A stretch of 64,000 nucleotides of DNA from Candidatus Aenigmatarchaeota archaeon (GTDB lineage Archaea; Aenigmatarchaeota; Aenigmatarchaeia; CG10238-14): contig JAHLMM010000001.1 in assembly GCA_018920365.1 (NCBI GenBank), positions 274,165 to 338,164 on the forward strand, in the 5' to 3' direction. Position numbers and translations under genes: made by a program. The notes under the pieces were generated by a model. That model saw only the letters and a list, made by a program, of their open reading frames with translations, searched no databases and was not told the origin of the DNA. Of this stretch, positions 7 through 47,047 are shown piece after piece (position 1 is the first letter of the stretch; the number at the start of each line of letters is the position of its first letter).

Positions 7-2010
7 TTGCTTGAAACTGAGATTGAGCCTTGCGGATGGATAAATTATGACAGCAATGCAAGAAAAATAGAATCAGATTTTCAACCAAAAATTAAAATAA
101 TGTCGTTTGACATTGAGGTTATAGATGATGAGAATGATGAAAAGATTGTGATGATTTCACTTGCAGACAATTCTGGTTTCAAGAAAATACTATCGTTGAA
201 AAAATCAAAATCATCTTTTGTACAAAGCTTTAACAGCGAAAAAGAGTTGATAGAAAAGTTTGTTGAAATAGTAAATGAAAGAGATCCTGATATTATTTTG
301 ACATATAATGGCGATGCTTTTGATTTTGTCAAGCTTAAAACAAAATCATCAAAACTAAAAATTGGCTTGAACATAGGCAGAAACGGCGAACAAATAAAGT
401 TTGAGAGAAGAGGAAGAGGTTCAGCAGCATTAATTAAAGGCAGAGTTCACATAGACATTTACAATTTTGTTGATCACATACTTTCTAATTCGCTAAAGAC
501 AGAAGTTTTGACATTAGACGAGGTTGCAAAAGAACTTTTGGGAGAGGAGAAGATAAAAATCAGTTGGTCTGAAGTAAAAGAAAAATGGAAAAAAGACGAT
601 ATAGAGCATCTTGTTAAATATTCTCAGAAAGATGCCGAAATAACTTTGGCTTTGGGTGAATATTTGTTACCGCAAATATTTTCTCTTTCAAAAATGGCAT
701 CAAGCTTACCTTTTGACACATCAAGATATTATTATTCTCAACTTGTTGAGCATTTTCTTATGAAGAAATCTGTGCACGACAAGAGGATAATACCAAATAT
801 GCCAAGGTATGATGAAATAAATGAAAGAAAGCAAGTTATGCCTTACACAGGCGCTATAGTGATAGAACCAAAAACAGGTTTGCATGAGAATGTTGCAGTG
901 TTTGATTTTCAGAGCTTGTATCCAAGCATAATTGTAACTCATAATATTTCTCCAGAAACGCTTAATTGCGGACATACTGAATGTAGAAACAGAAACACAA
1001 CGCCAGAAAGCAAAAATTATTATTGTGTTCAGACACGGGGTTTTATTTCAAAACATTTAGAAGAGATAATTCATGAAAGAAGAAGAATAAAAGAAATGAT
1101 AAAAGATGAAAAGAATAAGCAAAAGATTAATCTGCTAAAAAACCAACAATACTCACTAAAAATAATAGCAAATGCAATGTATGGTTACTTTGGCTATCCA
1201 GGATCAAGATGGTATTGCCGAAGCTGTGGCGAGTCATGCGCAGCTTTTGGCCGTTATTATATAACTTTTGTTTTGCAAAGTGCTGCTGAAAATGGCTTTG
1301 ATGTAATATATGCTGACACAGATTCATGTTTTGTTAAGTTAGAGAAAGAAAACGATTTGGAAAAAATATTAAAGTGGAACAAAAAAGTGAATGATGAATT
1401 GCCAGGAATAATAGAATTAGAATATAGAGATTTTTATCCAGCTGGAATTTTTGTTGCAAAAAAAGCTGATGAGAAAGGTGCTAAAAAGAGATATGCACTG
1501 CTTACGAAGGATGCTAAACTTGAAATAAGAGGATTTGAAACAGTTAGAAGAGATTGGTGTGAATTGGCAAAAAAAGTTCAACATGAAGTTTTGAGGATAA
1601 TTCTTGTTGAAAAAAATCTTGACAAAGCGGTAAATTATGTTAAAAACACTATAAAAGAGTTGAATGCAGGAAAAGCAAAAATAGAAGATTTGGCAATAAA
1701 AACACAACTAGTTATGCCTTTATCAGAATACAAGCAAATCGGGCCACATGTCAAAGTTGGAATGAAATTAAAGCAGAAAGGTATAGATGTTGTTGAAGGA
1801 ATGATCTTGCAATATGTCATTACAAAAGGCAAGGGAAGCATTTCTGACAGAGCAGAGCCACTGGAATTTGCGAAAGAAAAAGATTATGATCCTGATTATT
1901 ATGTCAACAATCAAATATTGCCAGCTGCTTTGAGAGTTTTACAAGCGTTTAACATAAACGAAGATTTGTCAATAGACAAGAATAGCAGCTTACACAAGTG
2001 GTTCAAATAG
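7..2010 (+). CDS. polB: Family B DNA polymerase (PolB), 5'-truncated by window edge
   Basis: Exonuclease-to-palm region with the YGDTDS-like motif C 'VIYADTDS', plus KxY-type 'KIIANAMYGYFG'. The ORF runs from window position 7, so the N-terminus lies outside. Confidence 0.9.
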   Translation: MLETEIEPCGWINYDSNARKIESDFQPKIKIMSFDIEVIDDENDEKIVMISLADNSGFKKILSLKKSKSSFVQSFNSEKELIEKFVEIVNERDPDIILTYNGDAFDFVKLKTKSSKLKIGLNIGRNGEQIKFERRGRGSAALIKGRVHIDIYNFVDHILSNSLKTEVLTLDEVAKELLGEEKIKISWSEVKEKWKKDDIEHLVKYSQKDAEITLALGEYLLPQIFSLSKMASSLPFDTSRYYYSQLVEHFLMKKSVHDKRIIPNMPRYDEINERKQVMPYTGAIVIEPKTGLHENVAVFDFQSLYPSIIVTHNISPETLNCGHTECRNRNTTPESKNYYCVQTRGFISKHLEEIIHERRRIKEMIKDEKNKQKINLLKNQQYSLKIIANAMYGYFGYPGSRWYCRSCGESCAAFGRYYITFVLQSAAENGFDVIYADTDSCFVKLEKENDLEKILKWNKKVNDELPGIIELEYRDFYPAGIFVAKKADEKGAKKRYALLTKDAKLEIRGFETVRRDWCELAKKVQHEVLRIILVEKNLDKAVNYVKNTIKELNAGKAKIEDLAIKTQLVMPLSEYKQIGPHVKVGMKLKQKGIDVVEGMILQYVITKGKGSISDRAEPLEFAKEKDYDPDYYVNNQILPAALRVLQAFNINEDLSIDKNSSLHKWFK

Positions 2011-2029: not shown

Positions 2030-2658
2030 TTAATACTCAACCAAGAAATCTTCGGGCTTTAGCCCGTAGATGAATTGGTTGCCTTCTTCTATTACGAAAT
2101 ATAAAATAAAAAATAGGAGCAGAGCTCCACTCAATAGGAATATGTCTAGCTTTAGCTATAGAGTTCTGCTTACTTAAAGCTTTGCGAGGTGTTGTTATGG
2201 ATCAATTCAATAGCTTTAGCCATAGCATTGGAAATAATATTCACCATCTAGAATGGTGCACTAAATATAGATACAAGATGTTTAGAAAAAAAAGACTGAG
2301 AGAATATTGCAAAGATATTTTGTATATGATAGCTAGACGTCATAAAATAGAAATATTGGAATTAGCAGTGATGGAAGATCATGTGCATGTCATAGCTCAG
2401 TTGCCGCCATATATGTCCCAGTCTAAAGCTGTTCAATTGTTAAAAGGTGCATCGTCTTATGAGCTATTTAGGCTAATACCAAATTATAGATTGAGATATC
2501 CTAAAGGAAGTTTCTGGTCTAAAGGAAATTTCAAGGATACTATTGGCAGAGTGACGATAGAAGTTGCAAAGAAATATGTTCGTGAACAGCAGATGCAATT
2601 AGTTCACTTCACGAAATTAATAGGAAACTGCGGACTTTAGTCCGCAGAGGATGTCATT
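2030..2658 (+). mobile_element. IS200/IS605-family insertion sequence, TnpA-only, copy 1
   Basis: A 629-bp block almost identical to 45357..45985. It has subterminal hairpins 'tcttcgggctttagcccgtaga' (left) and 'ctgcggactttagtccgcag' (right). It encodes a 152-aa HUH Y1 transposase. Confidence 0.8.
2182..2640 (+). CDS. tnpA: IS200-type transposase TnpA (HUH/Y1)
   Basis: 152 aa with an 'HVHVI' HuH motif and the typical IS200 size. It differs from the copy at 45509..45967 by only 2 aa. Confidence 0.8.
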   Translation: MRGVVMDQFNSFSHSIGNNIHHLEWCTKYRYKMFRKKRLREYCKDILYMIARRHKIEILELAVMEDHVHVIAQLPPYMSQSKAVQLLKGASSYELFRLIPNYRLRYPKGSFWSKGNFKDTIGRVTIEVAKKYVREQQMQLVHFTKLIGNCGL

Positions 2659-2667
2659 CCTAATGAT

Positions 2668-3597
2668 ATGTTAAGATATCACAATACTTTTCATAAAGGT
2701 AGACTAGGAGTTACCATAGGTGTCACATATTGGGGGGATAAACCTGATATAAATCAATTTGGTACAGTAAGATTTGATGAAGAAGGCAGAGTGATGGAAT
2801 TTAGAGAAAAATCCCCAGAGCCAGCGTCTTTATATATAAACACAGGAATTGTGATGTTTTCTCCTGAGGTAATTCGGCCTTTGAGAGGAAGTTCTTCAGA
2901 GCTTAAAGATTTAGGTGGCCATGTTATACCTTATCTTTTGCAAAAGGATGTTTCAGTTTGTGCATATGGACATCAAACTAAAGGATTTGAACAAATACGA
3001 GATTGGGTTGATTTTGGGACAGTAGAAGCATATTTGAGGGCAAATGGTAATGTTTTGAAAGGAGTTTACGACTGGTTTGAATTTCAAAATTATGAAAAAT
3101 TGGAAGGAGATAGATACAGTGTTTTAGTTCATAGAAATTCTTTTGAAGCTTTAAAAGAAGCACTGAAAAGTGGCAGAGTTAGTTTGGAAGGCAGATCTAT
3201 TATAGGTTCAGGAATGAATTTAGTCGGTCCTGTATCAATATCTAACGCTGTTATAGGACATAATACAATTATTGGAAACTCAGAAATATCAGGAACTCAA
3301 GAATATCCAACTGTACTACTAGATACATCTACAATAATTAATTCAGAATTACATTCATCAATTGTCGGCTATAGTTCTTGTTTAAATGCAGAGAATAGGA
3401 AATCATCAATGGGCGAATTTTCTGTAATAGGCAACAACATAACAGTTACAAACGCTAGAATTGATCCAAGAGTGAGAGTTGCAGATTCAAGATATACAGA
3501 TTTGATTTTATCAACAAACAAGTATGAAATAGTTTACGCTAGCGATAATCTGATATTTTTTGTTGAAAAACAAAATAATTATAATCCATTTAGATGA
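2668..3597 (+). CDS. NDP-sugar pyrophosphorylase-like protein, central and C-terminal part only, with left-handed beta-helix repeats (N-terminal GxGxR region absent)
   Basis: The middle part resembles sugar nucleotidyltransferases ('FGTVRFDEEGRVMEFREKSPEP'). The C-terminus carries hexapeptide repeats 'IIGSGMNLVGPVSISNAVIGHNTIIGNSEISG'. The ORF starts 10 nt after the IS200 right end. Confidence 0.45.
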   Translation: MLRYHNTFHKGRLGVTIGVTYWGDKPDINQFGTVRFDEEGRVMEFREKSPEPASLYINTGIVMFSPEVIRPLRGSSSELKDLGGHVIPYLLQKDVSVCAYGHQTKGFEQIRDWVDFGTVEAYLRANGNVLKGVYDWFEFQNYEKLEGDRYSVLVHRNSFEALKEALKSGRVSLEGRSIIGSGMNLVGPVSISNAVIGHNTIIGNSEISGTQEYPTVLLDTSTIINSELHSSIVGYSSCLNAENRKSSMGEFSVIGNNITVTNARIDPRVRVADSRYTDLILSTNKYEIVYASDNLIFFVEKQNNYNPFR

Positions 3598-3859
3598 TTG
3601 AAAATTCTTTGAATTCGTTTTTATAATTTTGTTCTCTTGCATCTATTTTATCAACTCTTGCTAAAACAGGCCCTTTGCTAATATAAATCAAAAAATTTTT
3701 TATTTTTTCATCATCACCTTCAGCAATTATTTCAACTCTTCCGTCATTCAAATTCCTTACCCAACCCTTTATACCAAGTTTTTCAGCAACAGTTTTTGTA
3801 AACCATCTAAAATTGACGCCTTGAACACGACCAGAAACAAAAATATGAACGCGCTTCAT
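3590..3859 (-). CDS. acyP: Acylphosphatase
   Basis: 89 aa with 'VSGRVQGVNFRWFT' and 'GWVRNLNDGRVEI' acylphosphatase signatures. Confidence 0.8.
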   Translation of the reverse strand: MKRVHIFVSGRVQGVNFRWFTKTVAEKLGIKGWVRNLNDGRVEIIAEGDDEKIKNFLIYISKGPVLARVDKIDAREQNYKNEFKEFSII

Positions 3860-3994
3860 ATATATTATTTCATTATTTCAATTTTTATCCTTGACCAAAC
3901 GGTCTGAACTGTTTGTTTATCAAGAAAATCAGTTTTTTGTTATAGTTGACTATAACATATTTTTTATTTATTTTCAAGATGATAAACTATTTTT

Positions 3995-4375
3995 ATGAAG
4001 TATGAAAAGGCTTATGACGTCCAGCAAATTATGAAAAAAATTGTTAATGTATTAAATATGCAGAATATAGACATCAACAGAATAGTTTGTATGCGAAGTT
4101 ATGGATCAAAAAGTAAGGCAATAGCAAGAATTTGGAGTTTTCCGAAAATATTTCAAAAAGCACTTGATTGTTCATCATATTATGTAATAGAAGTGATTTC
4201 AGAAAGATTTGACAAATTAAATGAAGATGAAAAGGAAAAGGCAATAATACACGAGCTGATGCACATACCAAAAAGTTTTTCTGGTGGATTGTTGCCGCAC
4301 AAACATCATTCACAAAAAATAAACAGAGAAACTGTGGACAAACTTTATTTAAAGTACAAAATGAAATCTTTATAA
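3995..4375 (+). CDS. Putative zinc metallopeptidase-like protein (HExxH)
   Basis: The motif 'IIHELMHIP' is present. The protein is small (126 aa), so its family is uncertain. Confidence 0.35.
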   Translation: MKYEKAYDVQQIMKKIVNVLNMQNIDINRIVCMRSYGSKSKAIARIWSFPKIFQKALDCSSYYVIEVISERFDKLNEDEKEKAIIHELMHIPKSFSGGLLPHKHHSQKINRETVDKLYLKYKMKSL

Positions 4376-5323
4376 TTGAAGACATGCAAAGTGATTTTTA
4401 TGATAGAATTCTATATCAAAACAATAAAAGATCAGAATTTACAAAAAATAACAGAGTTCAAGCCTGGTTGTTGGATAAATTTGGAAGCGCCTGAAAAACA
4501 TGAAATAGAAGAAATTTCCAAAGATTTGAAAATAGATGAAGTATGGATAAATAGCTGTTTGGATATAGATGAAAAATCAAGAGTTGAAACAGAAAACGGA
4601 AATGTGTTGCTGATAACAAGAATTCCTTACAAAGATGAGGATGAAATAACAACTCTGCCTTTTGGTATAATAATAACAAAAGACTGCTTGCTAACTGTTT
4701 CAAGCTTGGATAATCTTATTCTTCAAGACATAAAAAATGAAAAAATCAAAGTTTATACAACCCAAAGAGTAAGATTTGTCTTGAAGGTATTTGAAAGAAT
4801 AAACAGACATTATGACAAGTTTTTGACTGAATTAAGAAGAAAATCAGAAATGATAGAGGACATGCTGACAACATCTCTAAGCAACAAAGAGATAGAGAAT
4901 TTGCTTAAAATACAGAAAACTTTGATATATTTCAGCAGTGCTGTTGTGGCAAACGAAATAGTATTTGAAAAAGTAAATTCAGGAAAGATTTTGAAACTTT
5001 ATGAGGAAGACAAAGATATAACAGATGAGATTGTCTTGTCAAATAAAGAGATATACGAGGCTATAAAAATAATGAGAGACGTTTTGAGCAACACTTTAGA
5101 CGCATATGCTTCAATAATATCAAATAATTTGAACATAGTCATGAAATTCTTAGCATCTGTCAGCATAATATTAGCATTTCCTGTGATGATAGCATCTTAC
5201 TATGGTATGAACGTAGGCTTGCCGTTTCAAAACGAGCCTTATGCTTTTGGATTAATTTTGCTAATGTCTTTGATATCAGTCATAGGAGTATTTGCACTAT
5301 TCAAGAAAAAGAATTGGCTATAA
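4376..5323 (+). CDS. corA: CorA-family Mg2+/Co2+ transporter
   Basis: C-terminal two TM helices with the signature 'YGMN' loop. The N-terminal part looks like a cytoplasmic funnel domain. Confidence 0.8.
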   Translation: MKTCKVIFMIEFYIKTIKDQNLQKITEFKPGCWINLEAPEKHEIEEISKDLKIDEVWINSCLDIDEKSRVETENGNVLLITRIPYKDEDEITTLPFGIIITKDCLLTVSSLDNLILQDIKNEKIKVYTTQRVRFVLKVFERINRHYDKFLTELRRKSEMIEDMLTTSLSNKEIENLLKIQKTLIYFSSAVVANEIVFEKVNSGKILKLYEEDKDITDEIVLSNKEIYEAIKIMRDVLSNTLDAYASIISNNLNIVMKFLASVSIILAFPVMIASYYGMNVGLPFQNEPYAFGLILLMSLISVIGVFALFKKKNWL

Positions 5324-5352
5324 TTTAATTAATAAAATCATTAATATATTGT

Positions 5353-5835
5353 ATGAAAAAACTAAAGATAGGGTGGTTTTCCTTTACCTGTTGTGAGGAC
5401 TCGACAATAATATTCATAGAATTGATGAATGAGCATTTTAAAGATTGGGAAAAGCTCATAGAATTTAAATACTTCAGAACTTTGAAAAACAATAATTATA
5501 TGACTGATTTGGATGTTGCTTTTGTTGAAGGTGCAATAGCAAATTACAAAGAAGAGGAAATAGTAAAAGAAATAAGAAAAAACTGCAAAAAGCTAGTAGC
5601 AGTTGGGAACTGTGCTTGTGTTGGCAGCCCATCAAATCAAAGGAATTCTTTTGATCAAGAGACAAAACAGGAGATACAGTTTATACTTGACAGGTTTGGT
5701 CATAGAGAAAAGGTGTCACCTGTTTCTGAGATTGTCAAAGTTGATGATAGCATTCCAGGCTGTCCAATGTCAGAGCAATTGTTTTTGGAAAAATTAGAGC
5801 AATATTTCAGAGAGTTTGGTGTTAAAAATGCATAA
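5353..5835 (+). CDS. [NiFe] hydrogenase small subunit, minimal (proximal Fe-S cluster ligands only)
   Basis: Carries the 'FTCCEDS', 'GNCACVG' and 'IPGCPM' Cys motifs typical of the hydrogenase small-subunit N-domain. Its end overlaps the start of the large-subunit gene. Confidence 0.6.
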   Translation: MKKLKIGWFSFTCCEDSTIIFIELMNEHFKDWEKLIEFKYFRTLKNNNYMTDLDVAFVEGAIANYKEEEIVKEIRKNCKKLVAVGNCACVGSPSNQRNSFDQETKQEIQFILDRFGHREKVSPVSEIVKVDDSIPGCPMSEQLFLEKLEQYFREFGVKNA

Positions 5836-7105
5836 GGATTTTGACATAAATATTGATCACATAAGCAAGACAGAAGGTCATGCTGATTTGGAGATAAGAG
5901 TAAGGGAAGGTGTTGTTGAAGACGTTAAATTGAAAATAAGCGAGAACAAGAGATTTTATACACAAGCAATAAGAAACAAAGTTTTCAATGGAGTACCACA
6001 ACTAGTTTCTAGAATATGCGGAACTTGCAGCATAGCACATTTGACTTGCAGCACAGAAGCTGTTGAAAAAGCTTTGAAAATTCAACCATCAGAACAGACA
6101 ATGCTTTTGAGAAAGCTGACAATGTATGGAATGATGATAAGAGATCATGCTATGCATTTGTATTTTTTTGTCATGCCAGACATTTTAAATAAAGATTCTG
6201 TTTTGGAGTTTGATGCTAACGAAAGAAAATGGGTTGAAGACGCCTTTGCTGTTAAAGGAGCTGGCAACAATCTGTCAAAACTAATTGCTGGAAGGGCTGT
6301 ACATGCCACTTATGAACAAATAGGATATTTTTCAAGTATACCAAAAAAAGACGACATAAAAAAAATGATTGAAGAATTAAAATCAGTCAGGCAAAAAACA
6401 ATAGATTTAGTTGATTTTCTTTTCAATTGCAATTTCAATTTTGAAAGAAAGACAAATTTTGTCGCATTGTGCACAAATGATTTTAGCTTTTTGGAAGGAA
6501 AAATAAAAAGCGCTGATGGAAATGTAATTGAAGAAGAAGATTATTGGGATTATTTGAATAGAGTTGTTATACCTTACTCACAAGCAACAGGTTTTACTTT
6601 TCAAGGCAAAGAATATATGGTCGGCGCTTCTGCAAGACTAGCTTTAAACAAGGATGCTTTGCACAAGGAAACAAAAAAAGACCTTTCAAAATACATTAAC
6701 ATATTCCCATCTTACAATGTTTATCATAATAATTTGGCTCAGGCTATTGAAATATTGCATTCAATTGATCATTCTATTGAAATATTGGAAACAGCAGAAT
6801 TCAAAGATGAACCAAGGCCAGAAATAAAAATGAAAGCTGGAAAAGGCATAGGTGTTGTAGAAGCACCAAGGGGAACGCTATATCACATGATTGATTTGGA
6901 TGATAATGGAAAAATAAGATATGGTAATTTTGTGATACCAACAGCGCAAAACCAGATAAAAATGGAGAACGACATAAGAGAGCTAGTACCAAAGATAATT
7001 GATAAAAACAAGCATGAAATACAACATGAAATTGAAAAGTTGATACGGGCATATGACCCTTGTATGAGTTGTGCCAGCCATTTCTTAAAAATAAAATGGA
7101 AATAG
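5816..7105 (+). CDS. [NiFe] hydrogenase large subunit
   Basis: N-terminal 'RICGTCSIAH' (RxCGxCxxxH) and C-terminal 'DPCMSCASH' (DPCxxCxxH) Ni-binding motifs. Confidence 0.85.
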   Translation: MVLKMHKDFDINIDHISKTEGHADLEIRVREGVVEDVKLKISENKRFYTQAIRNKVFNGVPQLVSRICGTCSIAHLTCSTEAVEKALKIQPSEQTMLLRKLTMYGMMIRDHAMHLYFFVMPDILNKDSVLEFDANERKWVEDAFAVKGAGNNLSKLIAGRAVHATYEQIGYFSSIPKKDDIKKMIEELKSVRQKTIDLVDFLFNCNFNFERKTNFVALCTNDFSFLEGKIKSADGNVIEEEDYWDYLNRVVIPYSQATGFTFQGKEYMVGASARLALNKDALHKETKKDLSKYINIFPSYNVYHNNLAQAIEILHSIDHSIEILETAEFKDEPRPEIKMKAGKGIGVVEAPRGTLYHMIDLDDNGKIRYGNFVIPTAQNQIKMENDIRELVPKIIDKNKHEIQHEIEKLIRAYDPCMSCASHFLKIKWK

Positions 7106-20719: not shown

Positions 20720-21476
20720 AATTGTTTTTGTGAATAGCAAAAATTACACCATTGTCACCAAACTAATAAAAGAAATAAAACTAAGAAAATATTCGTATAA
20801 AACTGGGAAAAGATATATAGATATTGTCGTTAAATTTCCGAAATCAGGTAAAACATCAAAAGAATTTTTGTTATAAAGTTCAAAAAAGCAGATTCTACTA
20901 TGAGAATGTTCTAAATCAAAAATTTTATAAGAAAATACCATATTTAAAACCAAGATTAAAACTGCCAAAAGTTCTAAGAAAAGAAGACGTAACAAAAATG
21001 ATAGATGTTGTGAAAAATACAAAACATGAGCTATATTATCAGCGCTTTATTATACAGGTTTGCGTTTGAACGTTTGAGCAAAGAAACTTGAGGTGGGATG
21101 ATATAGATTTTCAGAGACATATTTCATATAAAGAAGGCTAAAGGTGACAAAGAATTGTTTTTTAGATGAGAAACTAAAACAATCGCTGAGGAATCTGGGA
21201 ACAAAACAATATGGGCTTGTATTTATCTAATCCAGAGGTGGAAAATATAGCAAAAGAACAATACAAAAAATATTGAAAGATGCTGCGAGAAAAGCAAACA
21301 TTTCAAAGAAAATAATACCAAATTCATTAAGACATTCTTTTGCTACTCATCTTTTAGAAGCAGGAGTTGATATAAGATATATACAGCAGCTTTTAGGACA
21401 TAAAAACCTTCAAACAACTCAAATCTACACTCATGTAGCAAACAAAGACATAAAAAGGCTTGCGAATGCTATTTAA
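20720..21476 (+). pseudogene. Tyrosine recombinase/integrase (XerC/D-like), degraded by multiple frameshifts and stops
   Basis: Integrase-like peptides appear in three different frames: 'ITPLSPN', 'ADSTMRMF', 'LRWDDIDFQ', 'YGLVF'. The ending '[37 protein letters not shown]' carries the R-H-R-Y catalytic region. ORF-track pieces 20824..21069 and 21273..21476 are fragments of it. Confidence 0.65.
21426..21475. repeat. Direct repeat DR1 (integrase 3' end), att-like
   Basis: The 38-nt 'tacactcatgtagcaaacaaagacataaaaaggcttgc' plus about 12 similar nt. It is repeated at 23667..23716. Confidence 0.6.
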
Positions 21477-21688: not shown

Positions 21689-22504
21689 ATGAAAACATTT
21701 TCAAAGAAAAATGAAATCAACATTAGTAAAATTACTGAAAAGCATATGAAAAATAATAATGTAAAAAAGTGGGAACCGGAGAATTTTGAACTTCAAACAA
21801 CAACAATATGGAGCTTTCCTAAAAGAGGCAATTGGGCAACTCATCGTGGAGACTATAGAGGCAATTGGGCACCAGAAATACCAAGGAACTTGATTTTAAG
21901 ATACTCAAAAAAAGGTGATATAGTTTTAGATCCTTTTGTAGGTTCTGGGACTACTATTATTGAGTGTAAATTGCTTGGAAGAAGAGGTATAGGTATTGAT
22001 ATAAATCCTGATGCGATAAAACTAGCTAAAAAAAGAATTGAATTTTCGAAATTGTTTGATGAACCTCAAGAATTGAGGGTTGGCGATGCAAGAGATTTAA
22101 GTTTTATAAAAAGCAACTCTATTGATTTAATTTGTGCGCATCCACCATATGCAGACGCTATACAATATACAGATGGAATAGAAGGCGATTTATCGTTTAT
22201 TAAAAATGTTGATGAATTTGTTAACGAGATAGGTAAAGTTGCTAAAGAATGTTACAGAGTATTAAAGCCTGGTAAATATTGTGGTGTCTTAATAGGAGAT
22301 ATAAGAAGAAAAAAACGCGTCATCCCTGTTGGATTCAAAGTTATGAACGAGTTTTTAAATGTTGGTTTTAATTTGAAAGAAATTATAATTAAACTTCAAC
22401 ATGAATGCAAAACTACGCCGTTGTGGGAGAAAAAATCTATAGAATATAATTTTTTACTTCTCGCGCATGAATATTTATTTGTTTTTGAAAAGTTAGAAAA
22501 ATGA
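21689..22504 (+). CDS. N6-adenine/N4-cytosine-type methyltransferase (DNA MTase, possibly RNA MTase-like architecture)
   Basis: 'HRGDYRGNWAPEIPRNLILRYSKKGDIVLDPFVGSGTT' (motif X-I) is followed by 'ICAHPPYAD' (motif IV). Confidence 0.6.
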   Translation: MKTFSKKNEINISKITEKHMKNNNVKKWEPENFELQTTTIWSFPKRGNWATHRGDYRGNWAPEIPRNLILRYSKKGDIVLDPFVGSGTTIIECKLLGRRGIGIDINPDAIKLAKKRIEFSKLFDEPQELRVGDARDLSFIKSNSIDLICAHPPYADAIQYTDGIEGDLSFIKNVDEFVNEIGKVAKECYRVLKPGKYCGVLIGDIRRKKRVIPVGFKVMNEFLNVGFNLKEIIIKLQHECKTTPLWEKKSIEYNFLLLAHEYLFVFEKLEK

Positions 22505-23447: not shown

Positions 23448-23666
23448 AATTTTCAACGATTTTGATTGTAATTATATATTTTTGAAGAAAATTTAGGTTT
23501 AACATATTATATTAATATTATTTTTTACGAGGTAAAATTTTAAGAAAAATCAAGTCTAGCTCAATATATATTCAACACCTAAGATACGAAAATGTAACTT
23601 ATTCAAGTGATGAATTTGTTGATATAATGGTATTTACTAGCGAAATAAACAAGATGTGTTCAATTA

Positions 23667-23716
23667 TACACTCATGTAGCAAACAAAGACATAAAAAGGC
23701 TTGCAAACGCCATTTA
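23667..23716. repeat. Direct repeat DR2, copy of integrase 3' end
   Basis: 38/38 identity to 21426..21463 and similar flanks. It is an isolated copy about 2.2 kb downstream of the integrase pseudogene. Confidence 0.6.
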
Positions 23717-23792
23717 AAAAATTTTCTAATGAATAGCAACTAAAACTTAAATACCTCAAAATTAGATATTAATCTTATCAGGTGATAAAAAC

Positions 23793-26328: not shown

Positions 26329-26880
26329 ATGACCAAATTCAATATAAAAATAGAAAACATCGTTGCTTCTGCATCGCTAGGCGTTCGCGTGCCGCTTGAA
26401 AAAATGATAAAATATCTTGAAGGTACTGAATACGAGCCTGAGCAATTTCCTGGCTTGGTTTACAGGGTTAAAGATCCTAAGGCTGCGACATTAATCTTCT
26501 CATCAGGCAAAATTGTCTGCACAGGCGCTAGAAGCATTGAAGATGTCAAAAGAGTTGTAAAAAAAGTTATTGATGCAATCAAAAGCGCTGGCATAGGCAA
26601 CCCAACAAAATACACTGTGCAGATAGAAAACATCGTCGCATCAGCAAAGCTAAAATCAACACTTAATCTAGACAAAATAGCATTTGAAGTCGAAGAATCT
26701 GAATACGAGCCTGAGCAATTTCCTGGCTTGGTTTTGAGAATGAGAAACCCTAAAGTGGCTTTCTTGCTTTTCTCATCAGGCAAAATAGTATGCACTGGAG
26801 CAAGAAAAATAAAGGATGTTGAGTCTGCAGTTGAAATGCTGTCAGGAAAGTTGAAAAGCATAGGAGCACTGAATGAATAG
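26329..26880 (+). CDS. tbp: TATA-box binding protein
   Basis: Two direct repeats, each 'ENIVASA...PEQFPGLV...FSSGKIVCTGAR'. Confidence 0.9.
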   Translation: MTKFNIKIENIVASASLGVRVPLEKMIKYLEGTEYEPEQFPGLVYRVKDPKAATLIFSSGKIVCTGARSIEDVKRVVKKVIDAIKSAGIGNPTKYTVQIENIVASAKLKSTLNLDKIAFEVEESEYEPEQFPGLVLRMRNPKVAFLLFSSGKIVCTGARKIKDVESAVEMLSGKLKSIGALNE

Positions 26881-35886: not shown

Positions 35887-37290
35887 GTGGCTATGGAAGA
35901 AATAGGATATTCGCAAATAGTAAAGAAAAATGTAGAAAATAGCGTGAAAGAGGGTGCTTTACATTCAGTTAAACTAGGCGCTGGTGAATCTTATATAAAT
36001 GCTTTTGCTATAAAGGTTTTGAATTTTACAAATACGCAAATAGGTCTGTTAACATCGTTACCGCTGTTTCTTGGATATTTTTCGAATATTTTTACATCAA
36101 AGATTATTGATAAATTAAACAGCAGAAAAAAATTGATTGTTATAGGTGCATTTATAAATGCACTTTGCTTTATTCCAATATTCCTAAGTTTTTTCATAAA
36201 AGGCTATGAATTTCCATTTATGTTAGCATCAGTCACTCTATATTTTGTATCAGATCTTATTGTTACACCAGCATGGATAAGTCTGATGGGTGATATAATA
36301 CCAGATAGAATAAAACCAATATTTTTTGGTGAAAGAAATAAAATAAACAACCTTGTGGCTTTTTGCTTCATGCTTATAAGTGGCATTATACTTCACAATG
36401 TTTCTGGCATAAGTCAAATTTACGCATTTGGTATAATATTTTTTATAGCATTCCTCGCAAAGTTAGGATCTTTTTTCATGCATACAAAAATTTATGAACC
36501 AAATTATGTTTCAGATGAATTTGAAAAGTTCAGTATAGGAGATTTCATTAAAAAACTAAAATACACAAAGTTCGGAATATTTGTAATTTACATGTGTGTT
36601 TTTACATTTTCATTCAGAATAGCCGCTCCTTTCTTTTCTGTGTATATGTTCAGAGATCTTAATTTCACTTATTGGCAATTTGCAATAATAACTACTGGTA
36701 ATGCTATAGCAACAATAATTAGCATGCCATGGTGGGGCAAGTATATTGATGAATATGGAAACAAGAAAATTATGTCATTGACAGGATTGCTTATACCATT
36801 CATACCTTTTTTGTGGATGTTATCAGAAAATATAGTTTATTTGTTCATTGTTGAGATATTTTCTGGTTTTGTGTGGGCTGGTTTTAATCTATCAACATTC
36901 AATTTTGTATTTTACTCAACTTCTTCAGAAAAAAGGGCAAGAGCTTACTCATATTACAATATACTTATAGGATTTTCTATAATATCTGGAACTATGTTTG
37001 GTACTTGGCTGCTCAAGTTTGGCTATTTCTTCAAAAGTGAAATATTTATTGTGTTTATTGTTTCTTCAATTGCAAGATTGATAACAAGCTTGTATTTCTT
37101 ACCAAAAATAAAAGAACCACCTAAAAAAGAAATATCAACAATAAAATTGTTTTGGCAAGTTTCTTTTGTTGAAGCAAGAAGATCTTTGCACAATATAAGC
37201 ATATTTAAACGAAAGCCGAAAAAAAGATCTTTTTTTGAAAGACTAGTTGAACAAGTCAATGAAATTGAAAGTGCAGGAGGCAGGATTTGA
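35887..37290 (+). CDS. MFS transporter
   Basis: Twelve TM segments. The 3' end of the ORF reads through into the antisense tRNA gene. Confidence 0.6.
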   Translation: MAMEEIGYSQIVKKNVENSVKEGALHSVKLGAGESYINAFAIKVLNFTNTQIGLLTSLPLFLGYFSNIFTSKIIDKLNSRKKLIVIGAFINALCFIPIFLSFFIKGYEFPFMLASVTLYFVSDLIVTPAWISLMGDIIPDRIKPIFFGERNKINNLVAFCFMLISGIILHNVSGISQIYAFGIIFFIAFLAKLGSFFMHTKIYEPNYVSDEFEKFSIGDFIKKLKYTKFGIFVIYMCVFTFSFRIAAPFFSVYMFRDLNFTYWQFAIITTGNAIATIISMPWWGKYIDEYGNKKIMSLTGLLIPFIPFLWMLSENIVYLFIVEIFSGFVWAGFNLSTFNFVFYSTSSEKRARAYSYYNILIGFSIISGTMFGTWLLKFGYFFKSEIFIVFIVSSIARLITSLYFLPKIKEPPKKEISTIKLFWQVSFVEARRSLHNISIFKRKPKKRSFFERLVEQVNEIESAGGRI

Positions 37291-37357
37291 ACCTGCGTAT
37301 CCACTAAGGAACCAGCTCCTAAGGCTGGCGCCATTGACCAGGCTAGGCGACTCCTGC
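37272..37357 (-). tRNA. tRNA-Leu (anticodon TAG)
   Basis: GCAGGAG acceptor, D-arm GCC/GGC, anticodon stem CCAGC/GCTGG with loop CTTAGGA, long variable arm, T-arm GCAGG-TTCAAAT-CCTGC, and discriminator A. Confidence 0.85.
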
Positions 37358-44756: not shown

Positions 44757-45272
44757 TTGATTATGAAAAATTTGTACAAATCCATGAAACAGACAAGAAA
44801 GAGCAAAGCATACAAGGAAATGCTAAAGCAGAGATTGATTGAATGGAGAAAGCAAGAGAGGTTTGTTAGAGTTGAAAAACCTTCCAAGCCTGATAGGGCA
44901 AGATCGCTTGGTTACAAAGCGAAACAAGGCTTTGTCATTGTAAGGGCAAGGTTGCAAAGAGGTGGCAGAGACAGGCCGCATTATCTGAGGAAAGGAAGAA
45001 AGCCGTCAAAAACAGGTGTGACAAGATATACAAGCAAGCAGTCTTTGCAAGCAATAGTTGAGCAGAGAGTTGCAAGAAAATATCCAAACCTTGAAGTGCT
45101 GAATTCTTATTGGGTTGGACAAGACGGAAGATATGTTTGGTATGAGGTTATAATGGTTGACAAAAATCATCCTGTTGTGAAGAGTGACAAAAACATTAAA
45201 TGGATAGCAGAAAAGCAGCATACCAGAAGGGTTTTTAGAGGATTGACATCGGCTGCGAAAAAGTCAAGATAG
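44757..45272 (+). CDS. rpl15e: Ribosomal protein L15e
   Basis: '[41 protein letters not shown]'. Confidence 0.85.
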
Positions 45273-45356
45273 TTTGATTATGGAATTTTGCTACTATTGC
45301 TATCAGTATATCAGGATATATGTTGTTACTTATATATAGTTAAAAATAGAAATCTT

Positions 45357-45985
45357 TTAATACTCAACCAAGAAATCTTCGGGCTTTAGCCCGTAGATGA
45401 ATTGGTTGCCTTCTTCTATTACGAAATATAAAATAAAAAATAGGAGCAGAGCTCCACTCAATAGGAATATGTCTAGCTTTAGCTATAGAGTTCTGCTTAC
45501 TTAAAGCTTTGCGAGGTGTTGTTATGGATCAATTCAATAGCTTTAGCCATAGCATTGGAAATAATATTCACCATCTAGAATGGTGCACTAAATATAGATA
45601 CAAGATGTTTAGAAAAAAAAGACTGAGAGAATATTGCAAAGATATTTTGTATATGATAGCTAGACGTCATAAAATAGAAATATTGGAATTAGCAGTGATG
45701 GAAGATCATGTGCATATCATAGCTCAATTACCTCCATATATGTCCCAGTCTAAAGCTGTTCAATTGTTAAAAGGTGCATCGTCTTATGAGCTATTTAGGC
45801 TAATACCAAATTATAGATTGAGATATCCTAAAGGAAGTTTTTGGTCTAAAGGAAATTTCAAGGATACTATTGGCAGAGTGACGATAGAAGTTGCAAAGAA
45901 ATATGTTCGTGAACAGCAGATGCAATTAGATCACTTCACGAAATTAATAGGAAACTGCGGACTTTAGTCCGCAGAGGATGTCATT
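45357..45985 (+). mobile_element. IS200/IS605-family insertion sequence, TnpA-only, copy 2
   Basis: A 629-bp near-identical copy of 2030..2658, including both subterminal hairpins. Confidence 0.8.
45509..45967 (+). CDS. tnpA: IS200-type transposase TnpA (HUH/Y1)
   Basis: 150 of 152 aa identical to 2182..2640 (V to I, V to D). Confidence 0.8.
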   Translation: MRGVVMDQFNSFSHSIGNNIHHLEWCTKYRYKMFRKKRLREYCKDILYMIARRHKIEILELAVMEDHVHIIAQLPPYMSQSKAVQLLKGASSYELFRLIPNYRLRYPKGSFWSKGNFKDTIGRVTIEVAKKYVREQQMQLDHFTKLIGNCGL

Positions 45986-46336
45986 AGATTAAAAGGTGAT
46001 ATGAAATGGAATATGAAAAAAAACGTTCAAAAGAAGAATATTTATTACAAGTGCTTGACAATGTTACAAATGAGTTACAATGTAGAGGAATATCAGGAAA
46101 TAAAGGATATTGTTATTTAGCTGGGGCATTAAATACTTATTTTGGTAATAAACCGCCAGTTGATCAAAATGCTGGTTTGAAAAATTGAAGGGAATTTGGC
46201 ATAGTTTAGCAGAATCACCAAAAGAAATATCAAAAAAATTAAGAGCCATGTATCCAAATATTGATGGAATAATTGATTATGAATCTCATGGTGCTTTGTA
46301 GGTTTTTTATTATTTTTTTACCATATTTTTATTGTT

Positions 46337-47047
46337 ATGTACTATGACATGCACGTTCATTCAGCTTTTTCTGAAGGCGAAAGCAGTTTAGAAGAGATAG
46401 CGACTCAAGCAAAGATTCTTGGCTATAGTGGCATATGCTTTGCAGAATATTTCAAAGGCAAGCAAAAGATGCTTGAGCTGAAGGAAGAGATTGCCAAAGT
46501 CAGCGAAAAGGCTAGAATAAAAATATTTTTAGGATTTGAAGCAAGAAACTCAAATGAGCTGAAAAGGCTTGTTGCTTTAAGAAGGGAATATGATGTTCTT
46601 CTTGTAAGAGGTTATGACACAAAGCTGAACAGGCTAGCAGTTGAAACACCTGAAGTTGATATTTTAACGCATCCAGAATATGAAAGAAAGGATTCTGGTT
46701 TGAATCACGTCTTGGTAAAGGAAGCTGCTAAAAATAATGTTGCAATAGAGATCAATTTCAGAAACATCTTGATCAACAACAAACATTCAAGATCAGCTGC
46801 TCTGTCTCACATATCACACAATGTGATGCTTTGCAAAAAATTCAAAGCACCTGTTATAATCTGCTCTGGTGCAATATCTCACTGGCAATTGAGAGATCCA
46901 AAGATAATGATATCATTTGCAAAGCTTGTTGGTTTGGATTTGCATGAAGCAAAGCTATCATTGAGTGAAGTGCCAAAAAGAATAATAAATCAAATATATG
47001 AAAGGAAAAGCAAAAAATGGATAATGCCTGGAGTGAAGGAATTATGA
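46337..47047 (+). CDS. rnp3: RNase P protein subunit Rpp30/Rnp3 (PHP/TIM-barrel)
   Basis: 'YDMHVHS' PHP-like start. Position immediately upstream of Pop5. Confidence 0.7.
   Translation: MYYDMHVHSAFSEGESSLEEIATQAKILGYSGICFAEYFKGKQKMLELKEEIAKVSEKARIKIFLGFEARNSNELKRLVALRREYDVLLVRGYDTKLNRLAVETPEVDILTHPEYERKDSGLNHVLVKEAAKNNVAIEINFRNILINNKHSRSAALSHISHNVMLCKKFKAPVIICSGAISHWQLRDPKIMISFAKLVGLDLHEAKLSLSEVPKRIINQIYERKSKKWIMPGVKEL

Follow-up and report, generated by a model that had tools for sequence, protein, structure and literature searches.

The window analysed here, a 64,000-nt stretch with a G+C content of 32% from the genome of a Candidatus Aenigmatarchaeota archaeon, opens with the 3' part of a family B DNA polymerase gene, polB (7..2010, forward strand; Pfam DNA_pol_B, 1.1e-72), whose product shares 96% amino acid identity with that of the MAG SKW179 (GCA_026414305.1), the closest genome. 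This gene ends at 2010 and is followed, after 19–24 nt, by an insertion sequence (IS copy 1; 2035..2658, forward strand) and, directly behind it, by the 3' fragment of a gene for an NDP-sugar synthase (NTP gene; 2659..3597, forward strand). A second copy of the same element (IS copy 2; 45362..45985, forward strand) is located between the genes for L15e (44757–45272) and RNase P p30 (46337–47047), as had already been recognized in an earlier reading of this DNA made from its letters alone (hereafter, the sequence-only reading). Each copy contains one transposase gene, namely tnpA of copy 1 (2197..2643), which runs from ATG to TAG and encodes a Y1/HUH transposase of 147 aa (MBU5689822.1), and tnpA of copy 2 (45524–45970; MBU5689884.1), both on the forward strand. 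Both proteins are encoded on one contig of 394,136 nt, and the elements are already annotated, in the sense that NCBI names both TnpA proteins 'IS200/IS605 family transposase'.

The two copies can be aligned without gaps over 629 nt (2030–2658 and 45357–45985), with sharp repeat edges on both sides and six substitutions, which are found at 2389, 2400, 2403, 2406, 2514, and 2603 in copy 1. The TnpA proteins differ at two residues, V/I beside the HUH motif and V/D in the C-terminal tail, in accordance with the earlier description of two near-identical copies with two amino acid changes. In the window, each of the end motifs (30 and 33 nt) is present exactly two times, whereas none is expected from shuffled sequences. 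No tnpB is present in or beside either copy, as judged from the ORFs and the neighbours (polB and the NTP gene for copy 1, L15e and small ORFs for copy 2), and each 624-bp element holds tnpA only, also as previously proposed. Four of the six differences between the copies are clustered in 18 nt (2389–2406 versus 45716–45733), and at all four, copy 1 and the SKW179 outgroup have G whereas copy 2 has A or T; the cluster looks like a single multi-base event or a gene-conversion tract rather than a series of independent mutations. Moreover, tnpA of copy 1 and the NTP fragment lie in the same frame, parted by the TAG stop alone.

The TnpA protein matches the Pfam family Y1_Tnp (PF01797) at 1.7e-30 with 106 bits (cutoff 23), and the NCBIfam equivalog NF033573 (transpos_IS200) with 108.5 bits (cutoff 55). 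Its HUH motif, DHVHVI, aligns with DHIHIL of the TnpA of IS608 (2A6M), while the segment KKYVREQQ aligns with KQYIENQQ of the same protein, which contains Y127, and thereby provides the putative catalytic Tyr. The HUH motif and this Tyr are conserved with respect to the solved TnpA structures 2EC2, 2F4F, 2A6M (IS608), and 2XM3 (ISDra2), and both are invariant in seven relatives. The element therefore belongs to the IS200 group of the IS200/IS605 family, as a member with tnpA only and a new one in a DPANN lineage, so that the family assignment made in the sequence-only reading stands. Like other members of the IS200 group, such as IS200 from Salmonella and the Sulfolobus elements of the solved chains 2EC2 and 2F4F (to which the TnpA aligns with E about 1e-16), it is small (624 bp), encodes a lone Y1/HUH TnpA of ~147 aa that passes the NF033573 cutoff, bears subterminal hairpins instead of terminal inverted repeats, and leaves no target duplication. 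Unlike them, it is hosted by Aenigmatarchaeota (DPANN), a new lineage for this group, its end sequence is different, and its left hairpin is surrounded by an extra outer stem.

The left-end structure (2038..2081, forward strand) consists of an outer stem of 7 bp, formed by 2038–2044 with 2075–2081, which encloses a hairpin (2048–2071) whose core (2050–2069) is a 9-bp stem with one T.T mismatch. The right-end hairpin (2628..2647, forward strand) is a perfect 9-bp stem, and the equivalent hairpins of copy 2 are located at 45377–45396 (left) and 45955–45974 (right), on the same strand. Both ends had been described as carrying imperfect subterminal hairpins; these are indeed present at both ends of both copies, but the adjective applies only to the left one. 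The hairpins lie ~13–15 nt inside the left end and 10–11 nt inside the right end, a spacing similar to that of IS608, and a search by eye for the guide/cleavage-site pairing of the IS608 type in this element yielded no convincing assignment. Folded as single-stranded DNA, the left end reaches −13.2 kcal/mol with a z of −5.95 against shuffled sequence, and the right hairpin a z of −4.41. Across 10 family members, the inner left stem is 100% paired, with a G.T/T-A exchange, and the outer left stem exhibits a compensatory G-C/C-G exchange. The TAG stop of tnpA (2641–2643) falls within the right-end hairpin, in its loop. The SKW179 copy (L016:2953–3465) has AA in place of TT in this loop and lacks the tnpA stop, and its ORF exits the element.

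Both copies in the window are directly preceded by TTAAT (2030..2034 for copy 1 and 45357..45361 for copy 2, forward strand). In copy 1, this site, which can also be read as TTAA plus the first base of the IS, belongs to the polB–mscL intergenic region and thus lies outside the mobile element. Mapping of the bases immediately 5' of the left ends, where the sequence-only reading had placed the target, identified TTAAT in 10 of the 11 independent left junctions of the close subfamily, and TTAA in the remaining one, while TTAAT accounts for about 0.3% of the positions in the window. The tip of the IS after TTAAT is variable (ACTC, ATCC, ACCC, ACAC, or AACT). At the opposite end, ...GGATGTCAT is followed among 46 right ends by T in 22, A in 21, G in two, and C in one, and three copies on a single 331-kb contig disagree in this base. 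In this family, the left end is inserted 3' of a specific tetra- or pentanucleotide, with no duplication of the target (PMC5027513). Taken together, the left junctions and the right-end bases therefore indicate an element of 624 bp with a boundary that is ambiguous by one base, i.e., TTAAT/ACTC...GTCATT/ (2035–2658) or TTAA/TACTC...GTCAT/ (2034–2657), where the slashes mark the junctions, and both readings fit the family rule. Hence, the 629 nt previously reported as the element are real as a repeat, but the first 4–5 common bases, TTAA(T), are the target site and do not form part of the IS. The possibility that TTAAT constitutes the first 5 nt of the IS was considered separately and rejected, since it would require losses of 4–5 nt at both empty sites of SKW179 described below, including a frameshift in the NTP gene.

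The target of ISDra2 from Deinococcus radiodurans is TTGAT. Similarly to ISDra2 and IS608, the left end of the present element is located 3' of a specific tetra- or pentanucleotide, here TTAA(T), although the sequence of the target differs; unlike both, this element has no tnpB. The left end of IS608 from Helicobacter pylori inserts 3' of TTAC (PMC5027513). By analogy with the family, the Y1/HUH TnpA would use a single-strand 'peel and paste' transposition with a circular intermediate (PMC5027513), in which TnpA would recognize the subterminal hairpins and insert the left end directly 3' of TTAA(T) with no target duplication. A literature search on IS605 together with TTAAT retrieved nothing relevant. 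On the other hand, TTAAT is under-represented in the window, with 362 occurrences on both strands versus 542 ± 29 in dinucleotide-preserving shuffles. This scarcity probably results from the TAA within the motif in a coding-dense genome, and selection against IS target sites may be a cause as well.

At the right-hand side of copy 1, homology to the NTP gene restarts at 2659, the first base after the IS, which corresponds to residue 138 (PNDMLRYH...) of the 449-aa SKW179 orthologue in tblastn comparisons, and the fragment thus comprises codons 138–449 and the stop. The called ORF (2668–3597; 309 codons) starts at an internal Met. Therefore, the earlier observation of an ORF that begins 10 nt after the IS is correct as to the IS abutting a truncated gene, but the homology begins at 2659 and not at the ATG at 2668. 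This ORF covers only positions 132–243 of the 245 positions of the Pfam NTP_transferase profile, and a complete domain with the N-terminal G-x-G-x-R nucleotide-binding loop is absent from it. Because only this part of the profile is present, the copy in the window is a gene fragment, predicted to derive from a sugar-phosphate nucleotidyltransferase with a C-terminal left-handed beta-helix. The ten full-length orthologues found are 439–467 aa long, with query coverages of 97–100%, none of them shows a short N-terminus, and SKW179, in which the site is empty, has an intact gene (449 aa), which corroborates the truncation that the sequence-only reading had proposed. The two consequences drawn from it fared differently. 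Replacement of the promoter by the IS is moot, since the 3' fragment lacks the nucleotide-binding N-terminus, and loss of the 5' part in association with the insertion is contradicted by the existence of codons 1–137 in the same strain, on an IS-bounded piece of 1.7 kb. In one strain, the element has very recently put an NDP-sugar synthase gene out of function.

In every related Aenigmatarchaeota contig that spans the locus, the gene order is polB, mscL, type II MetAP, NTP (447–451 aa), and acylphosphatase. Shorter related contigs agree with this order as far as they reach, the NTP gene being fragmented in one of them (L007). The MAG that contains this contig, GCA_038999805.1, harbours two versions of the locus (L007 and L005), one intact and the other with polB, NTP, and corA each split, which points to a bin of mixed strains, to a paralogous region in decay, or to a contig rich in errors. 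Compared with the Logan contig L014, the window lacks, between 2034 and 2659, a stretch of 1,700 bp (mscL, type II MetAP, and NTP codons 1–137) plus a second IS copy, and tblastn revealed no match to mscL, MetAP, or the NTP N-terminus elsewhere in the 64-kb window. The MetAP protein of the strain (P0139) is on record only in L014, a contig of 1,753 nt, and in neither MAG. L014 comes from the SRA run SRR27215045, and the same run also yields contig L002, which is 100% identical to positions 2629–6171 of the window. At its left end, L014 carries the final 30 nt of the IS (TGCGGACTTTAGTCCGCAGAGGATGTCATT), to which TCAAC and the start codon of mscL are joined. Next on the contig are mscL (TIGR00220), MetAP (TIGR00501, 311 bits), and, beginning with its ATG, the NTP gene, which runs to codon 137 and TTAAT (...GCCAATTTTAAT); the initial 23 nt of the IS close the contig. 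The assignment of L014 to the strain rests on the sample, the exact complementarity of the junctions, and the uniform divergence of this contig from SKW179, the physical link being at most 30 nt, and all six diagnostic sites are more than 30 nt away from the IS ends present on this contig.

When positions 1–2034 of the window, positions 31–1730 of L014, and the window from 2659 onwards are spliced, the resulting sequence aligns with SKW179 over 5,076 nt without gaps and with 92.6% identity. The spliced NTP gene encodes a protein of 449 aa with 84.6% identity to the SKW179 protein and no gaps, which covers positions 6–243 of 245 of the Pfam profile and carries the loop SAGGLSTRL. The corresponding empty sites of SKW179 read TCAAT/TTATC-ATG(mscL) and AATTTTGAT/CCTAATGAT, and both are one base off TTAAT (TCAAT and TTGAT, respectively). 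Therefore, the junctions of L014 and the empty sites of SKW179 show two separate clean insertions, one after polB (IS-a) and the other after NTP codon 137 (IS-b). As reconstructed from these junctions, IS-a inserted between polB and mscL, and IS-b after codon 137 of the NTP gene, splitting it into a 5' fragment and the 3' fragment found at 2659–3597. Both copies form direct repeats 1,700 bp apart around mscL, MetAP, and the 5' part of the NTP gene, in addition to at least one further IS copy whose right flank is located outside the window. In other words, the IS has cut the NTP gene cleanly, and what the window misses lies between two IS copies. IS copy 1 of the window corresponds to IS-a in its left junction, after polB, and to IS-b in its right junction, inside the NTP gene, and in the six diagnostic sites.

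Another assembly, GCA_038999715.1, shows 100% identity with the window along 11,209 nt and thus represents the same strain. Its contig 5 (43,075 nt) starts inside copy 1 at position 2389 of the window and is expected to end inside copy 2, whereas its contig 1 (L061) matches positions 1–2657 of the window with two mismatches and then runs into an unrelated right flank that is absent from the window. This right flank of a further IS copy (L061:4462–8444) contains a 60-aa membrane-like ORF, a 153-aa ORF, ftsZ on the other strand, and more genes. The polB-side IS is therefore given three different continuations by three assemblies of one strain. Since the 359 nt from 2030 to 2388, 354 of which belong to the element, are identical in all copies, short reads cannot join the left flanks to the right flanks. 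The single IS of the window, with the left flank of IS-a and the right flank of IS-b, thus quite probably reflects a collapse of two copies by the assembler, which would have merged IS-a and IS-b and dropped the short segment between them, and an artefact rather than a biological event is the most likely origin of this structure. The absence of MetAP from both MAGs is as expected if a repeat-bounded piece of less than 2 kb was dropped at binning. As in other cases of repeat collapse in short-read MAGs, the IS is where contigs of this strain end or take different continuations, and the repeat-bounded segment of less than 2 kb is seen only as an orphan contig. Unlike in the usual collapse, however, the junction halves match at base precision, and this allows the true order to be reconstructed without reads.

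If the collapse occurred as proposed, it would explain how a published MAG contig appears devoid of the essential MetAP gene and endowed with a 'truncated' enzyme. One near-identical IS made three assemblies of one strain disagree, and any gene loss, pseudogenisation, or completeness deduced from such junctions in DPANN MAGs would be misleading. The true gene order at this locus is recoverable from an orphan contig of 1.7 kb.

The alternative that best withstands this evidence, albeit an unlikely one, is a real deletion in the source population, by recombination or replication slippage between the direct repeats IS-a and IS-b, with a hybrid IS left behind. The window has precisely the structure of such a recombination product, with the left flank of IS-a and the right flank of IS-b at single-base precision, direct repeats of 624 bp with at least 99% identity and 1.7 kb apart are good substrates for recombination, and the 394-kb contig to which the window belongs runs through two IS copies. 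Moreover, a mixed population would give a de Bruijn graph indistinguishable from that of a collapse. However, this deletion would remove the type II MetAP gene, which is found at this locus in every relative examined and has no other copy in the 64 kb. MetAP is presumably both essential and single-copy in this genome, and its loss is expected to be lethal. In addition, the same clone (100% identity over 11 kb) keeps the segment in another sample, and the other assembly of the strain mis-continues the polB-side IS, which indicates that this node was resolved arbitrarily. A window that is correct as it stands, in the sense that part of a natural DPANN population has lost mscL together with its only MetAP gene by recombination between IS200-type copies 1.7 kb apart, is a rather doubtful proposition. 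If true, it would imply that these cells survive without N-terminal methionine excision of their own, e.g., by an intimate dependence on a host cell.

It has also been considered that the 1.7-kb segment and the flanking IS copies behave as a composite mobile unit that has moved elsewhere, in which case the window would be correct and MetAP would be relocated. L014 is certainly bounded by IS ends on both sides and, as deduced from the transposition mechanism, the left end of IS-a and the right end of IS-b could in principle be mobilized together. Nevertheless, at both the polB and the NTP junction the flanks of L014 match to the base, and the ancestral order is thereby regained with no gap, as corresponds to a segment that is in situ. 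Furthermore, excision of such a unit would take both IS copies and reseal polB-TTAAT to CCTAAT, and the window differs from this outcome, which makes the relocation highly improbable. Equally hard to sustain is the model of the sequence-only reading, namely a single IS insertion with an adjacent one-sided deletion of the 5' part of the gene and the DNA upstream of it. The window on its own does show an IS joined to mid-gene sequence, with the polB stop 19–24 nt to the left, but both junctions have exact partners in L014, as two separate clean insertions would produce, and each left junction is located at the target motif, where a random deletion end-point would not be. Finally, there is hardly any probability that ORF 2668–3597 is a naturally short, independent gene resulting from a natural two-gene split because, despite its ATG and intact frame of 309 codons, it holds only the C-terminal half of the NTP_transferase domain, its homology does not stop at the ATG but reaches upstream as far as the IS boundary, and the ten orthologues mentioned above are all full-length at nearly complete query coverage.

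Beyond the window, the element has relatives and further copies that bear on its recent activity. SKW179 has its own 626-bp copy, 88% identical, at an unrelated site, and a MAG from Lac Pavin carries a copy with 76% identity. A 35-nt motif of the right end was found in 40 JGI or ENA metagenome contigs, mostly at contig ends, as expected because the element is a repeat. An exact search with 35 nt of the left end among the GTDB species representatives, which do not include the genome of the window, gave zero matches. Within the strain, at least four distinct right flanks of the IS can be distinguished, so that the two copies counted in the sequence-only reading are an undercount. At the six variable sites, three haplotypes are observed: GGGG-C-T, which contig L001 ties to the 3' flank of the NTP gene; AAAT-T-A, corresponding to copy 2; and GGGG-T-A, found in L061 and shared at all six sites by the SKW179 outgroup. 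All three occupied sites of this strain are empty in SKW179, which has its copy elsewhere. Taken together, the three haplotypes and the empty sites support recent transposition within this lineage, in line with the recent activity that had been proposed from the similarity of the two copies. These data describe an IS200-type element that is active in Aenigmatarchaeota and has a defined target, TTAA(T); its relatives occur in 40 metagenome contigs, and short MITE-like derivatives exist as well.

These MITE-like derivatives of the IS family are located on metagenome contigs at L027:94–209, L032:1149–1264, L052:940–1150, and L048:10340–10591 (approximate coordinates), and consist of a left and a right end joined, with a total of only 112, 207, or 248 nt and without tnpA. 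The derivatives on L027, L032, and L052 are preceded by TTAAT. On the 1,233-nt contig L043, the left end of the IS is present twice on the minus strand (L043:326 and L043:469), 143 nt apart and each time after TTAAT, and these could be tandem or nested partial copies.

The surroundings of copy 2 differ between the strain and its relative, since L15e and p30 are separated by about 35 nt in SKW179 versus 1,064 nt in the window (84 nt, TTAAT-IS, and 351 nt). Copy 2 is accordingly held by about 440 nt of strain-specific DNA, the left part of which occupies 45273..45356 and the right part 45986..46336, both on the forward strand. The right part contains a 60-aa ORF (46006–46188) that continues in another frame to about 46305, and the ORF and its continuation would amount, when joined, to about 98 aa, apparently frameshifted. 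None of the fetched loci matches these ~440 nt, which hit neither a Pfam nor an NCBIfam family. Their assignment to the IS itself was rejected, as they accompany no other copy.

Some additional repeats were observed in the window. Two direct repeats of 58 nt with 91% identity (21419–21476 and 23660–23717), each of which forms the 3' terminus of an ORF, flank a DNA methyltransferase-like gene (21689–22504) and a 181-aa ORF on the other strand, and this region is possibly a restriction-modification cassette that was inserted into or next to a recombinase gene. A 52-nt stretch at 61490–61541 is 83% identical to 37272–37323, the 3' half of a tRNA-Leu gene (37271–37357, minus strand). ARAGORN called no tRNA at 61490, and this stretch could represent a tRNA fragment or else an archaeal tRNA that is atypical, for instance by containing an intron. 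Lastly, two pairs of direct repeats with 75–76% identity, spaced 273 nt apart at 26332–26819, are consistent with an internal domain duplication in a gene.
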